Shown: positions 5,510 through 9,720 of the stretch, piece by piece | How the letters are laid out: every line of letters starts with the position of its first letter | Position numbering within the stretch: position 1 is the stretch's first letter | Virus genome (UHGV): UHGV-0068970 | Reading direction: 5' to 3' (one strand) | DNA length: 17,470 nt | Origin: a virus | Made by a program: the position numbers and the translations under genes | Notes under the pieces: model-generated | Databases searched by the model: none | What the model was told of the DNA's origin: nothing | Seen by the model: the letters and a program-made list of their open reading frames with translations, nothing else

Positions 5510-5576
5510 TGAAACAGGTGAGTTGAGTTCAAACTGTAGTACAATTCTCTCCAGTTTGAACAGGAAAGAATATGTT

Positions 5577-5909
5577 ATGAACCCTTATATTTATCTTGGT
5601 GGTGCAATACTTGCAGAGGTCATTGGTACAACCTTAATGAAGTTTTCAGAAGGTTTTACACGGTTATGGCCATCTGTTGGTACAATTATTTGTTATTGTG
5701 CATCATTCTGGTTATTAGCTCAGACGCTGGCTTATATTCCTACAGGGATTGCTTATGCTATCTGGTCAGGAGTCGGTATTGTCCTGATTAGCTTACTATC
5801 ATGGGGGTTTTTCGGCCAACGGCTGGACCTGCCAGCCGTTATAGGCATGATGTTGATTTGTGCTGGTGTGTTGGTTATTAATTTATTGTCACGAAGCACA
5901 CCACATTAA
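5577..5909 (+). CDS. emrE: EmrE small multidrug resistance (SMR) efflux transporter, 110 aa
   Basis: From the internal ATG at 5577: MNPYIYLGGAILAEVIGTTLMKFSEGFTRLWPSVGTIICYCASFWLLAQTLAYIPTGIAYAIWSGVGIVLISLLSWGFFGQRLDLPA..., recognisably E. coli EmrE (four TM helices, conserved Glu at position 14). emrE is a known DLP12 cargo gene. Confidence 0.9.
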   Translation: MNPYIYLGGAILAEVIGTTLMKFSEGFTRLWPSVGTIICYCASFWLLAQTLAYIPTGIAYAIWSGVGIVLISLLSWGFFGQRLDLPAVIGMMLICAGVLVINLLSRSTPH

Positions 5910-6153
5910 AAATAATTTCTTTTAAAAGACTGAAATATGGCGGTTCATATCTTTACATGGGCCGCTTTTGTTAATGTTTTTAGTTTTTGTGTATTCTTTT
6001 GTGCCTTCAAGATTATTGCGTAAGCAAATTGCAATACGATTATTGTTGTATATTCAAAAGAATGTGATCGTAATTGTCTTTTTAAATAAAAATTAAACAA
6101 AAATTATATCTCACCACTAAGGTTTATAAAAGCATACGTTAGCAGGTGTCACC

Positions 6154-7680
6154 ATGAAAAAAGCCATAGCATATATGCGATTTTCATCACCAGGTCAGAT
6201 GTCTGGCGACTCATTAAACCGACAGAGAAGACTTATTGCTGAATGGTTAAAGGTAAATAGTGATTATTATCTTGATACCATAACATATGAAGATTTAGGA
6301 TTAAGTGCATTCAAAGGAAAGCATGCACAATCAGGAGCTTTTTCGGAATTTTTAGATGCTATAGAGCATGGTTATATATTGCCAGGAACTACATTGCTAG
6401 TTGAAAGTCTGGACAGACTTTCAAGAGAAAAAGTCGGTGAAGCGATTGAGCGTCTGAAATTGATTTTGAATCACGGTATTGATGTTATAACTCTTTGCGA
6501 TAATACAGTCTATAATATTGACTCTTTGAATGATCCATATTCATTAATAAAAGCCATACTTATAGCACAAAGGGCAAATGAAGAAAGCGAGATAAAGTCA
6601 AGTCGGGTTAAATTATCATGGAAGAAAAAACGGCAGGATGCACTGGAGTCAGGCACGATTATGACGGCGTCTTGTCCGAGATGGCTCTCATTGGATGACA
6701 AAAGAACAGCTTTTATTCCAGACCCCGACAGGGTGAAAACGATTGAGCTAATTTTTAAACTCAGGATGGAAAGGCGATCATTGAATGCAATAGCCAAGTA
6801 TTTAAATGATCATGCTGTAAAAAATTTCTCAGGAAAAGAAAGTGCATGGGGGCCTTCTGTAATTGAAAAATTATTAGCGAATAAAGCTCTGATAGGTATA
6901 TGCGTACCTTCATATCGTGCAAGAGGTAAAGGAATAAGTGAAATCGCTGGCTATTATCCCAGAGTCATATCAGATGATTTGTTTTACGCTGTGCAGGAAA
7001 TTCGGTTGGCACCTTTTGGTATTAGCAATAGTAGCAAAAATCCTATGTTGATAAATCTACTTCGAACAGTTATGAAGTGCGAGGCTTGTGGTAATACCAT
7101 GATTGTTCAGGCGGTATCTGGAAGTTTGCATGGCTATTATGTTTGTCCGATGAGAAGACTGCATCGATGTGGCAGGCCATCAATAAAGAGAAATTTGGTT
7201 GATTATAATATCATTAATGAGTTGCTTTTTAATTGTAGTAAAATCCAACCAGTTGAAAACAAGAAAGATGCTAATGAAACTTTAGAGTTAAAAATTATTG
7301 AGCTCCATATGAAAATTAATAATTTAATTGCTGCATTATCTGTTGCGCCTGAAGTTACCGCTATAGCAGAAAAAATCAGAGTATTAGATAAGGAATTACG
7401 AAGGGCTTCTGTATCATTAAAAACTTTGAAGAGTAAAGCGGTGAGCTCACTTGGTGATTTTCATGCTATTGACTTAACCAGTAAAAATGGGCGAGAGCTA
7501 TGTCGTACACTTGCCTATAAAACATTCGAAAAAATCATAATCAATACAGATAATAAAACCTGTGATATCTATTTTATGAATGGCATTGTTTTTAAACACT
7601 ATCCTTTAATGAAAACAATATCCGCCCAGCAGGCGATAAGTACTCTCAAATATATGGTTGATGGTGAGGTTTATTTTTGA
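6154..7680 (+). CDS. ybcK: Large serine recombinase (resolvase catalytic domain + recombinase domain + zinc ribbon), YbcK-like, 508 aa
   Basis: N-terminal AIAYMRFSSPGQ...SLNRQ resolvase-type motif, central recombinase region, Cys cluster CEACGNTM...YYVCPMRRLHRCG, coiled-coil tail. Matches my recollection of DLP12 YbcK. AT-rich relative to the flanking phage genes. Confidence 0.85.
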   Translation: MKKAIAYMRFSSPGQMSGDSLNRQRRLIAEWLKVNSDYYLDTITYEDLGLSAFKGKHAQSGAFSEFLDAIEHGYILPGTTLLVESLDRLSREKVGEAIERLKLILNHGIDVITLCDNTVYNIDSLNDPYSLIKAILIAQRANEESEIKSSRVKLSWKKKRQDALESGTIMTASCPRWLSLDDKRTAFIPDPDRVKTIELIFKLRMERRSLNAIAKYLNDHAVKNFSGKESAWGPSVIEKLLANKALIGICVPSYRARGKGISEIAGYYPRVISDDLFYAVQEIRLAPFGISNSSKNPMLINLLRTVMKCEACGNTMIVQAVSGSLHGYYVCPMRRLHRCGRPSIKRNLVDYNIINELLFNCSKIQPVENKKDANETLELKIIELHMKINNLIAALSVAPEVTAIAEKIRVLDKELRRASVSLKTLKSKAVSSLGDFHAIDLTSKNGRELCRTLAYKTFEKIIINTDNKTCDIYFMNGIVFKHYPLMKTISAQQAISTLKYMVDGEVYF

Positions 7681-7791
7681 GTAATAATCACTTTTTCAAC
7701 CGTGCTATAGTAAGAAAGTTAGGTAAGTACAATAAAATTATCTATCCTGAACGAAGCGTCCTGAGCTATGATTTTACTATAGGGACTGCCA

Positions 7792-8115
7792 ATGGATGCT
7801 GGCGTTCTCGTTCTAGCAGTTCAACAATCCCCAATCACAAAACAATTCACTGATAACGAACTTTGCACACTCGCCTGGTTATGGCGAGCAGGGAATGTGA
7901 TGTTAATTGCCTACCAGAACGTTACTCATCTTCTTCAGGATGCGGAGCATGGTGAAGCTGGTCACTTCACTTCCATCGAGCAAGAATATCCCCAGATACT
8001 CAACAGAGCGCGAGCAATCCTCGTCCGAGAAACGGCACATGTAAAACTTCAGCCGTGGCAGGATGATAAGTGGAGTCGAGTATTGCCGCATTTACCTCAG
8101 AATCTGTTTCAATAA
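7792..8115 (+). CDS. Hypothetical protein, 107 aa (orphan ORF; possibly a gene remnant)
   Basis: Only long ORF between ybcK and the HNH-domain gene. GC-richer than both neighbours. Weak RBS. No motif recognised. Followed by a 10-bp perfect hairpin (8143-8168). Confidence 0.4.
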   Translation: MDAGVLVLAVQQSPITKQFTDNELCTLAWLWRAGNVMLIAYQNVTHLLQDAEHGEAGHFTSIEQEYPQILNRARAILVRETAHVKLQPWQDDKWSRVLPHLPQNLFQ

Positions 8116-8289
8116 AGGCGCTAGTTAGTAAGGCTTCCGTCATTCTGCGATGACGGAAGTGCGGGCTGCGTACGGGAGAGCAATTGCATGAATAATATAA
8201 ATATTCCGCTCACTCCATATAGCGATTTCTGATACAAACTTATCTATTGTGGTAAAATTATAGAAACAAACTTATAGCGTACTAACCAT

Positions 8290-9072
8290 ATGGACAATAT
8301 TAATAAACACGGGCTCTCAAGAAGAATACCTGAGACAATAAAACGTCAGATAAGGCAAAGGTGCGGCTTTGGCTGTGTAATTTGTGGATTTGGATTTTAT
8401 GATTATGAGCATTTTAAACCTGACTTCGTTGATGCCAAAGTACATGATCCGAATGGAATGACACTTCTTTGCTCCCAATGCAATCAAAAAAGAGCTCGTG
8501 GTAGACTTTCAGCACAGACAGTGGAAATAGCTGACAGAAATCCCAAGTGCTTACAGGCTGGTTTTGCAAATGAAATGTTTGATTTTCATAATGAGCCTAT
8601 AACAGTAAAATTTGCAGGAGTGACGTTTCATAACTGTCAAAATTTGATTGTAGTCAATGAACAACCCATTCTTTCTGTGAAACCTTCACCCATACCACAT
8701 GGACCGATGCTTTTATCAGGAATTTTCTGTAATTCTATTGGTAAGGAGACTTTACTGATAGATGAAAATGAATGGAAAGCTAAATCAGACAATTGGGATG
8801 TGGAGTGTACCGGCCCGCGTATAACAATACGACGTGGGCCAGGAGAGTTTGCCCTCGTTCTAAAAATGGAACCTCCAACAGGATTGATTGTTGAGCGTCT
8901 TGATATGTTGTATGAAGGGGTCAGGATGAAAGGAGATAAAGATCTGCTGGAAGTTTCGATTAATGGAGGTCCCTTGCACAGATGGCAATCATGCTCAATG
9001 TCAAATTGCCATACAGGGCTTGCGATTCAGGGCGGTATTAGAGCTGCTAATGATCCTTTGTATTGCGCCTAA
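8290..9072 (+). CDS. HNH-nuclease-domain protein with uncharacterised ~190-aa C-terminal domain, 260 aa
   Basis: N-terminus RCGFGCVICG...YDYEHFKPDF...HDPNGMTLLCSQCNQKRARG fits the HNH/beta-beta-alpha-Me signature; compare the canonical HNH at 17017-17367. AT-rich ORF with a TGn extended -10 (TGGTAAAAT, about 8250-8262). C-terminal domain not recognised. Confidence 0.7.
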   Translation: MDNINKHGLSRRIPETIKRQIRQRCGFGCVICGFGFYDYEHFKPDFVDAKVHDPNGMTLLCSQCNQKRARGRLSAQTVEIADRNPKCLQAGFANEMFDFHNEPITVKFAGVTFHNCQNLIVVNEQPILSVKPSPIPHGPMLLSGIFCNSIGKETLLIDENEWKAKSDNWDVECTGPRITIRRGPGEFALVLKMEPPTGLIVERLDMLYEGVRMKGDKDLLEVSINGGPLHRWQSCSMSNCHTGLAIQGGIRAANDPLYCA

Positions 9073-9264
9073 ATCCACTAAATTGATTTTCAACAATCAA
9101 CTTGCCATAATTAAGTCACCGGAGTTTGAACTCCTCCGGTGACTTCTGCGCTAAACGGGGACGTTTATGCGCACATACAATCCAACCTCTCTTCTCCATT
9201 CACAGATGCAGAAATGCACCTGCGATATTTTGCATCCAGCGTTTGATCTCTGCGGAGGTGAAGC

Positions 9265-9720
9265 GTGAACCTCCCACAAGATGGTATCAAATTGCATCGC
9301 GGTAACTTCACCGCTATCGGTCGGCAGATCCAGCCTTATCTGGAGGACGGCAAATGCTTTCGCATGGTGCTTAAACCGTGGCGCGAGAGACGCAGTCTTT
9401 CCCAGAATGCACTCAGCCACATGTGGTACAGCGAAATCAGTGAATACCTCATCAGCAAGGGTAAAACGTTCGCCACTCCAGCTTGGGTAAAAGATGCTCT
9501 CAAACACACATATCTCGGTTATGAAACCAAAGACCTGGTTGATGTCGTAACCGGTGATATCACCACTATCCAGTCGTTACGCCATACCTCCGATCTTGAT
9601 ACCGGAGAGATGTATGTCTTCCTGTGTAAGGTTGAAGCCTGGGCGATGAATATTGGCTGCCACCTGACTATTCCGCAGAGCTGCGAGTTCCAGCAGCTCC
9701 GCGACAAACAGGAGGAGTAA
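9265..9720 (+). CDS. ybcN: YbcN / NinB-family protein, 151 aa
   Basis: GTG start at 9265 with [69 protein letters not shown]... recognised as DLP12 YbcN; the SLSQN...W motif resembles lambda NinB. Confidence 0.85.

Follow-up and report, generated by a model that had tools for sequence, protein, structure and literature searches.

Genes and features at the locus

The window analyzed here (the whole 17,470-nucleotide stretch of UHGV virus genome UHGV-0068970) is a DLP12-like lambdoid prophage of E. coli. Positions 7650 to 8300 were 100% identical to several complete genomes, such as that of E. coli SCU-102, in which the gene order is P, a ren-like gene, emrE, ylcJ, ybcK, a 324-nt coding sequence (CDS), a 783-nt hypothetical CDS, a 102-nt CDS, ybcN, ninE, ybcO, rusA, ylcG, and Q. 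An earlier reading made from the letters alone (the sequence-only reading) had singled out the 324-nt CDS and a hairpin behind it. The extent that it gave for this open reading frame (ORF), 107 amino acids (aa) from the ATG at 7792 to the stop codon at 8113 to 8115, was confirmed. Coordinates of the features are collected in Table 1.

Table 1. Features around the 107-aa ORF, in window coordinates
Feature	Position	Strand	Description
emrE-ylcJ-ybcK cassette, AT-rich	5523–7680	+	From the RefSeq annotation of the 100%-identical SCU-102 locus; GC 30 to 40%; abuts the 5' side of the truncated gene
ybcK, large serine recombinase	6154–7680	+	Pfam Resolvase, Recombinase, and Zn_ribbon_recom
Spacer between ybcK and the ORF	7681–7791	+	Truncation junction at its 3' end; weak Shine-Dalgarno (SD)-like AGGGA at 7781 to 7785
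107-aa ORF	7792–8115	+	3' half (residues ~100 to 202) of a Bro-N + P22_AR_C antirepressor-like gene
P22_AR_C domain, complete	7834–8046	+	ORF aa 15 to 85; Pfam PF10548
Perfect 10-bp inverted repeat, 6-nt spacer	8134–8159	+	CTTCCGTCAT-TCTGCG-ATGACGGAAG; proposed remodeled terminator remnant lacking a U-tract
Mosaic breakpoint	8166–8167		Homology with every other antirepressor-like locus carrying a type-A terminator ends here, 7 nt past the hairpin
Variable cargo slot	8167–9082	+	916-bp low-diversity cassette with a 260-aa HNH-like gene (8290 to 9072)
Second perfect hairpin, no U-tract	9113–9145	+	12-bp arms, 9-nt loop; in the conserved block to the right of the cargo slot

The sequence-only reading had called the ORF an orphan, which was incorrect, as its product is already annotated in RefSeq as "P22AR C-terminal domain-containing protein" (WP_000338660.1; 100% match, SCU-102) and carries a Pfam domain. 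The match to PF10548 (E = 1.1e-13) spanned profile positions 3 to 73 of 73 and scored 51.5 bits against a gathering cut-off of 22.4, which places the ORF within the curated P22_AR_C family. The PHROG family phrog_7640 is made up of exactly the 107-aa form (E = 1e-70), and weaker PHROG matches were to the C termini of "anti-repressor Ant" families; the putative antirepressor label of the ORF family is taken from these Pfam and PHROG names. The short form was widespread, in clusters of tens to hundreds of member sequences.

Searches of PADLOC and NCBIfam returned no match for the ORF, and a PDB sequence search with the 202-aa parent protein described below returned nothing significant and thus no solved structure related by sequence. 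An AlphaFold model of the 107-aa product, built on a shallow 15-sequence alignment, had a pLDDT of 52 and no confident fold. The large protein search recovered close E. coli relatives and fragments only, and not a length spectrum of distant stand-alone homologues.

The GC content was 46.9% in the ORF, 36.0% in ybcK, 40.7% in the HNH-like gene, 44.1% in the whole window, and 47 to 54% in the downstream backbone genes. The earlier description of the ORF as GC-rich and unlike its AT-rich neighbors held relative to both neighbors but not in absolute terms, as 46.9% is backbone-like. The composition outliers are the two AT-rich neighbors, not the ORF. The ORF is a small piece of backbone flanked on both sides by imported, AT-rich cassettes, which explains its backbone-like GC content.

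Origin of the ORF

The parent gene of the ORF was found by searching phage genomes with tblastn and 5,426 E. coli genomes with megablast. Full-length 202-aa homologues occupy the same nin-region slot in phage PhiR26_1, where the gene is annotated as "Rha protein," and in strains 2013C-3277 and LR1. The parent gene is 609 nt long, and the ORF sequence corresponds to its 3' half, so that the longer protein whose C terminus the sequence-only reading had proposed to look for was present in all three of these genomes. The full-length proteins (202 to 249 aa) combine Bro-N (PF02498) with P22_AR_C and match many PHROG antirepressor families. The slot that they occupy in related phages and prophages, between ren/P and ybcN, holds an antirepressor-like gene, an intrinsic terminator, and then a variable cargo gene.

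When the 202-aa parent was compared to the window by tblastn, residues 100 to 202 aligned to positions 7804 to 8112 at 80% identity, and residues 1 to 99, the Bro-N half, had no match anywhere in the window. The ORF begins at parent residue ~100 and does not have the two-domain architecture. Site-specific insertion of the ybcK element into the antirepressor-like gene was considered and rejected, because no Bro-N half was found by tblastn elsewhere in the window. Relative to Bro-N + P22_AR_C proteins in general (PF02498 plus PF10548; phrog_245 and phrog_5060), the ORF was 78 to 86% identical to the C-terminal ~103 residues and has the same strand and the same place in the nin region, between ren/P and ybcN, but it lacks the Bro-N half, uses a new start codon, and no longer shows purifying selection.

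At the junction itself, homology to the parent began at 7793 to 7805 by blastn, and in alignments, the first ~12 codons of the ORF formed a decayed stretch with ~69% identity to the parent. The ATG is out of the ancestral frame, which is restored by a 1-nt deletion. Local alignment of positions 7681 to 7812 with the Bro-N-coding half was no better than alignment with shuffled sequences, and a MAFFT alignment containing a 16-nt gap was not relied on upstream of ~7790. Homology to the ybcK flank in other prophages stopped at 7719, 7746, or 7898. The 20-mer upstream of the ORF was kept in 46 of 47 truncated loci, and a simple promoter scan found promoter-like sites no more commonly than in shuffled sequences.

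The gene was compared across 88 loci, of which 80 came from IMG/VR and six were annotated comparison loci, with the window making up the set; another comparison locus did not contain the anchor. The gene was full length in 39 loci and truncated in the other 49, nearly all of the latter lying directly behind ybcK and sharing an MDAGV start.

Constraint on the truncated reading frame

Selection was compared over the 88 codons shared by the two forms. Full-length copies had a pN/pS of 0.106. With the small counts (23 and 41 variants) and mosaic, recombining sequences of this sample, variants found only in full-length copies comprised 11 nonsynonymous and 30 synonymous changes (P = 3e-12 versus neutral), whereas those found only in truncated copies comprised 17 and 6, respectively, with no difference from the neutral ratio of 3.6:1 (P = 0.61); the two classes differed significantly from each other (Fisher test, P = 5e-4). 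Because the truncated-only variants fit neutrality while the full-length-only variants do not, the truncated copy appears to be a drifting relic. Derived amino acid changes in the window, which include D→N, T→I, C→Y, P→H, V→D, R→G, R→H, and A→V, sit at positions that are invariant in full-length copies.

The ORF was incomplete or missing in several related lineages. In ST131 prophages, the start codon reads CTG rather than ATG, and the ORF is reduced to its 5' part, after which comes an alpha/beta-hydrolase gene; the match ended at 7898 by megablast and at 7965 by blastn. In K-12-like prophages, ybcK is present and ybcL-ybcM stand in place of the ORF, and in O157 strain Xuzhou21, ybcK is followed directly by ybcN, with no ORF. 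Other frameshifted derivatives of the full-length gene were common in E. coli.

Among truncated loci, the frame was open from the same ATG in 48 of 49, and the 88 shared codons were free of indels, a state somewhat less eroded than expected of a long-dead pseudogene; the P22_AR_C domain is also retained in full. Residual function could explain this, as could gene conversion in which full-length copies carried by co-resident prophages served as donors. The constraint that is evident in full-length copies is relaxed in the truncated ones, and from these sequence comparisons, the ORF, now without detectable purifying selection, is most likely a nonfunctional relic or at best weakly constrained. 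The earlier suggestion that it is a gene remnant left by an insertion is supported: the ORF corresponds to the 3' half of a Bro-N + P22_AR_C gene and evolves with no detectable constraint.

Geometry and expected frequency of the hairpin

The sequence-only reading had reported a perfect 10-bp hairpin at 8143 to 8168. The sequence was exact and the pairing perfect, but the coordinates were 9 nt off, the true position being 8134 to 8159. As RNA, the stem extends to 12 bp through two G·U pairs (8133 to 8144 with 8149 to 8160), and outer helices span 8118 to 8171 (−26.6 kcal/mol, z = −2.6). The hairpin core (−17.5 kcal/mol, z = −3.8) forms a stable, G+C-containing stem-loop like that of an intrinsic terminator, and no T-run is present at the hairpin on either strand, so that the U-tract of such a terminator is missing. 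A simple terminator scan made no call at the hairpin; the same scanner also missed the type-A terminator described below, the stem of which is bulged and long. A search of Rfam at permissive thresholds gave no match with an E value of ≤1 in positions 7500 to 9300, and no second copy of the palindrome was found in the window, even when 3 mismatches were allowed.

First-order Markov simulation gave an expectation of 0.145 perfect hairpins (at least 10 bp, with loops of 3 to 10 nt) per window-sized sequence, and 24 of 200 simulated windows contained at least one. The window holds three (at 6401, 8134, and 9115), a number reached in 1 of the 200 simulations. A single hairpin of this kind is by itself unremarkable; it is the comparative data that give the hairpin at 8134 a history. 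In the hairpin at 9113 to 9145, the left arm varies without compensating change in the right arm. Similarity between the two hairpin regions, as might be expected of direct repeats flanking the slot, was marginal (P of ~0.03 in the window and 0.15 in PhiR26_1) and was not relied on.

Two alleles of the hairpin

The sequences 3' of the stop codon fell into several unrelated types, only two of which share the hairpin loop and right arm. Type A reads CTGCCAGCAT-TCTGCG-ATGACGGAAG-TGCTGGCA-T6-8, and type B, found in the window, reads CTTCCGTCAT TCTGCG ATGACGGAAG TGCGGGCT GCGTACGG. The fold of type A is a 13-bp stem with a bulge, and the outer 8 bp of this stem are formed by TGCCAGCA and TGCTGGCA, with U6-8 directly after it (−18.6 kcal/mol, z = −4.1). 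From this fold and the U8 run, type A is predicted to have the architecture of an intrinsic terminator, and variation among type-A alleles was located in the apical part and not in the outer stem.

The window allele shares with the type-A terminator of PhiR26_1, LR1, and ML35 an identical 19 nt (TCTGCG-ATGACGGAAG-TGC), a position 18 nt past the stop codon, and a similar hairpin stability, but it has no U-tract, other pairing partners, and an outer 3' arm truncated at 8166/8167. The statement in the sequence-only reading that the hairpin is not an intrinsic terminator therefore applies to the window allele, which lacks a T-run, but misses that the hairpin appears to be derived from one. Among the 5,426 E. 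coli genomes, type B was present in 81 (at least 99% identity) and type A in 177 (82 to 84% identity), and type B was always attached to the HNH-like cassette. No alleles intermediate between the two were found in IMG/VR or in the 5,426 genomes.

The left arms of types A and B differ at three positions. A distant third allele, that of 2013C-3277, carries the type-A base at all three, and type B is for this reason taken as the derived state. The three substitutions (G→T, A→G, and G→T) fall on the three mismatched positions of the repeat, each to the complementary base, and turn an imperfect repeat (7 of 10) into a perfect one. Random substitutions would match in this way with a chance of ~1/3240, a figure that is post hoc, as the hairpin had been flagged for being perfect. 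The loop and right arm were identical in types A and B (0 of 19 positions different), and the adjacent 28 nt differed at 8 positions; this hints at constraint or recent exchange, neither of which is required by the explanation of the locus as a relic. A hypothetical intermediate with the type-A left arm and the type-B right flank folded no better than shuffled sequences (−12.7 kcal/mol, z = −0.25), compared with −19.1 kcal/mol for the real type B. The type-B lineage was too uniform for an analysis of covariation.

The three substitutions point to compensatory selection or to one quasipalindrome template switch as the putative cause, and either would produce the same end state. Template switching at quasipalindromes is an established source of mutation in E. 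coli (PMC7202029). The type-A-to-type-B change resembles the published events (PMC7202029) in that an imperfect repeat became perfect, the changes are clustered and match the complement of the opposite arm, and no intermediates were sampled. It differs in that the present evidence is natural variation only and in that nearby unpaired positions also differ, so that stepwise substitution under selection is possible. This clean three-base perfection of a quasipalindrome without intermediates is the only mildly unusual element of the locus.

Breakpoint, cargo slot, and HNH-like cassette

The breakpoint at 8166/8167 is 51 nt past the ORF stop codon and falls where the 3' stem end and U-tract of the terminator used to be. 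A coincidence of the hairpin with the boundary of an inserted segment, raised in the sequence-only reading, was thus found, with the boundary 7 nt downstream of the hairpin. The breakpoint is most simply read as a recombination event that cut a terminator, and the hairpin would then not be a recombination signal.

On the other side of the slot, homology resumed at exactly 9083 in all six comparison loci. The HNH-like cassette was present in 80 to 82 of the 5,426 genomes, with at least 99.6% identity. One strain that carries the exact locus is ETEC E24377A (NC_009801.1), with 99.8% identity over positions 8116 to 9120. Its protein matched the Pfam HNH family only at an E value of 0.041 and phrog_6544 (unknown function), and it had no PADLOC or NCBIfam match.

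Lambdoid nin regions have mosaic module boundaries and moron or cargo slots, and truncated genes and broken terminators at the junctions are standard. The window is typical of these slots, with sharp breakpoints at gene ends and terminators and AT-rich, interchangeable cargo between conserved blocks.

Proposed history of the locus

The comparisons show the homology, the truncation, the breakpoints, the relaxed constraint, and the two hairpin alleles with their polarity; the following order of events is proposed. The AT-rich emrE-ylcJ-ybcK cassette would have replaced everything up to the middle of an antirepressor-like gene, leaving the half that codes for P22_AR_C; an ATG recruited at the junction, together with the 1-nt deletion, would have kept the 107-aa frame open. 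A second recombination would have joined the HNH-like cassette at 8166/8167, with loss of the U-tract and of the last part of the 3' stem. The left arm may then have been re-paired, through three clustered substitutions, with the former apical region of the terminator, giving a perfect stem without a U-tract and with the same stability as the original.

The step in GC content, the supposed orphan ORF, and the odd hairpin require no new gene or RNA element under this history, because the two recombination junctions explain all of them. The explanation as a whole, with the ORF as the back half of an antirepressor-like gene without its front half, ordinary debris of phage mosaicism, and the hairpin as a terminator remnant, is considered probable.

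Alternative explanations

The 107-aa product may instead be a functional stand-alone P22_AR_C protein, for example, one that acts by titration or dominant interference on the full-length Bro-N/P22_AR_C antirepressor-like proteins of lambdoid phages that are co-resident or superinfecting, or on the targets of those proteins, in which case the amino acid changes would represent neofunctionalization and not decay. The P22_AR_C domain is complete, both the ATG and the AGGGA/AGAGA ahead of it are conserved, nearly all truncated loci have an open frame without indels, and the form is widespread with a PHROG family of its own. The nonsynonymous-to-synonymous counts of 17:6 would also fit a burst of adaptive change, but they are indistinguishable from neutral, and the radical changes among them (V→D, C→Y, P→H, and R→G) are at positions invariant in full-length copies. 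In some lineages, the start codon or the entire ORF has been lost and not replaced, no SD sequence stronger than AGGGA is present, the upstream promoter-like sites do not exceed chance, and the AlphaFold confidence is low, albeit with a shallow alignment. This possibility is regarded as rather unlikely. A role as a small partner, antitoxin, or immunity protein of the HNH-like protein, which the sequence-only reading had also offered, is extremely improbable. The two genes are adjacent and on the same strand, and all 80 to 82 genomes with the cassette also carry the ORF, but the association is one-way only, the cassette being a single recent lineage and the ORF or its parent being far more widespread. 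At least five other downstream cargoes were found: elsewhere, the ORF or its parent precedes a 169-aa hypothetical gene, HEPN and hypothetical genes, small phage ORFs, or other 3' ends. A 62%-identical homologue of the HNH-like protein in Klebsiella phage ST846-OXA48phi9.2 has an unrelated upstream neighbor, and no PADLOC model matched either protein. The co-conservation across contexts that marks a two-gene toxin/immunity module was not observed. As for a chance open frame in noncoding DNA, for which only the small size of the ORF speaks, its probability is close to nil; it was refuted by the 80% identity over 103 residues to full-length C termini, the Pfam match above threshold, and a synonymous divergence in the parent family far exceeding the nonsynonymous divergence.

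For the hairpin, the more probable alternative is compatible with the ORF being a relic and holds that the U-less stem is a selected RNA element, its substitutions being compensatory changes fixed by selection. Such an element might be a stem that protects the 3' ends of pR-derived transcripts after processing or Rho-dependent termination, or it might act as a transcription pause or insulator separating the cargo gene from the relic. The predicted stability was regained, from −12.7 kcal/mol in the hypothetical intermediate to −19.1 kcal/mol, similar to the ancestral −18.6 kcal/mol; the two alleles are 100% identical in the loop and right arm; a second perfect U-less hairpin lies on the other side of the slot; and three perfect hairpins occur in the window, where 0.145 would be expected. 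Against this, one templated mutation would account for the changes with no need of selection (PMC7202029), type B consists of a single lineage (at least 99% identity) too uniform for a covariation analysis, Rfam finds nothing, and the left-arm variation of the second hairpin is uncompensated. Selection on the RNA is therefore judged unlikely, although with a real chance of being correct. The palindrome might also be a DNA site of YbcK or another recombinase marking an att-type boundary of an inserted element, as its 10-6-10 symmetry is perfect and it lies no more than 7 nt from the breakpoint and ~450 bp from ybcK. The earlier suggestion of a recombinase or processing site was not supported as stated: phages and prophages that have no ybcK carry the loop and right arm within a terminator, the perfect palindrome is absent from most ybcK-bearing prophages (those of the K-12, O157, ST131, Turner, and ML35 types), no second copy is present in the window, and the perfect form occurs only with the HNH-like cassette. 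The consistent co-occurrence with the recombinase, at the boundary of its element, that an attachment site of YbcK would show was not observed, and this origin is very improbable. A broader combination, in which an expressed P22_AR_C module modulates the antirepressor-like proteins of competing phages and the hairpins at 8134 to 8159 and 9113 to 9145 act as functional boundary elements organizing the exchange of nin cargo, is considered quite doubtful. If such boundary elements (RNA 3'-end or insulator stems or recombination linkers) were real, the hairpin at 8134 would be a natural record of templated (template-switch) repair.

Significance of the locus

Under the preferred explanation, a truncated gene and a cut terminator, the value of the locus is mostly that of a clean negative. 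It illustrates that truncation can leave a gene with an open frame that is annotated as a normal CDS in hundreds of genomes even though it apparently evolves neutrally. The type-A and type-B pair is a tidy natural candidate for a quasipalindrome template switch or for the restoration of a stem by compensatory changes once its terminator had been cut. The uncharacterized HNH-like occupant of the slot at 8167 to 9082 may be of more interest than the feature that was originally flagged. The unrelated gene upstream of its homologue in Klebsiella phage ST846-OXA48phi9.2 happens also to encode 107 aa.

A cargo slot downstream of the ant-like gene

The prophage segment that follows the antirepressor-like (ant-like) gene contains a variable cargo slot, a candidate hot spot for accessory or defence genes. 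In other prophages this slot is occupied by a 169-aa hypothetical gene, HEPN and hypothetical genes, an alpha/beta hydrolase gene, or ybcL-ybcM, or is empty. The occupant found here encodes a 260-aa protein with a CxxC...H...N...CxxC HNH-like motif at its N terminus and a 190-aa C-terminal part. This protein gave a weak match to the Pfam HNH model (E = 0.041), was assigned to phrog_6544 (a family listed as being of unknown function), and had no match in PADLOC or NCBIfam. The gene was found in only 80 to 82 of 5,426 E. coli genomes, with identities of at least 99.6%. PD-lambda-1 lies directly upstream of the slot in PhiR26_1, a phage with a full-length ant-like gene.

A homologue of the HNH-like gene is carried by Klebsiella phage ST846-OXA48phi9.2, where the gene on its 5' side also encodes exactly 107 aa, as does the truncated ant-like ORF of the window. 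BLASTP of these two 107-aa products returned no alignment, so the shared length was regarded as a coincidence, one that could mislead a synteny comparison based on size. A consensus scan reported TGCCA...TGGCG, with TTCTCGTTCT after it, as a weak stem resembling a terminator. This stem spans the ATG of the window ORF and would occlude this start codon if formed in RNA; 0.6 matches of this kind are expected by chance in the region.

Direct repeats and inverted repeats

Prophages with a full-length ant-like gene have two copies (87 to 91% identity) of a block that includes hairpin 2 and the first part of a ylcH-like ORF. Because one copy lies 5' of the ant-like gene and the other 3' of the cargo, gene and cargo form a unit bracketed by direct repeats, and the block may act as a recombination linker. 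The upstream copy in L004, one of the compared prophage loci, is annotated as a partial hypothetical coding sequence.

Hairpin 2 begins 30 nt into the conserved block that starts at 9083 and lies approximately 20 nt 5' of the 102-nt ylcH-like ORF. Among approximately 95 copies compared, the right arm was nearly invariant, and the left arm and loop varied without compensating change; several of these variants were C>T substitutions that kept G.U pairing. Copies with the perfect form belong to the lineage that carries the HNH-like cassette. Perfect hairpins with stems of 10 bp or more occur three times in the window (at 6401, 8134, and 9113), compared to 0.145 expected.

Coordinates of features in the window and in comparison loci
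Feature	Position	Description
emrE-ylcJ-ybcK cassette	5523-7680	strongly AT-rich (GC 30-40%) versus prophage backbone
Perfect 11-bp inverted repeat	6401-6424	within ybcK coding sequence; TTGAAAGTCTG/CAGACTTTCAA; 2-nt spacer
Terminator-like stem	7787-7804	
Variable cargo slot	8167-9082	HNH-like gene at 8290-9072
Repeated block with hairpin 2	9107-9244	L002, 2200-2297; L004, 2159-2296
Hairpin 2	9113-9145	perfect, no U-tract; arms AAGTCACCGGAG/CTCCGGTGACTT; 9-nt loop
Klebsiella phage 107-aa gene	L146, 2506-2829	

The emrE-ylcJ-ybcK cassette

YbcK contains a complete large-serine-recombinase domain set, and its resemblance to XisF is far below threshold (44.6 bits versus a cutoff of 375). Many E. 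coli prophages have the three genes conserved together, as does the free phage Turner.
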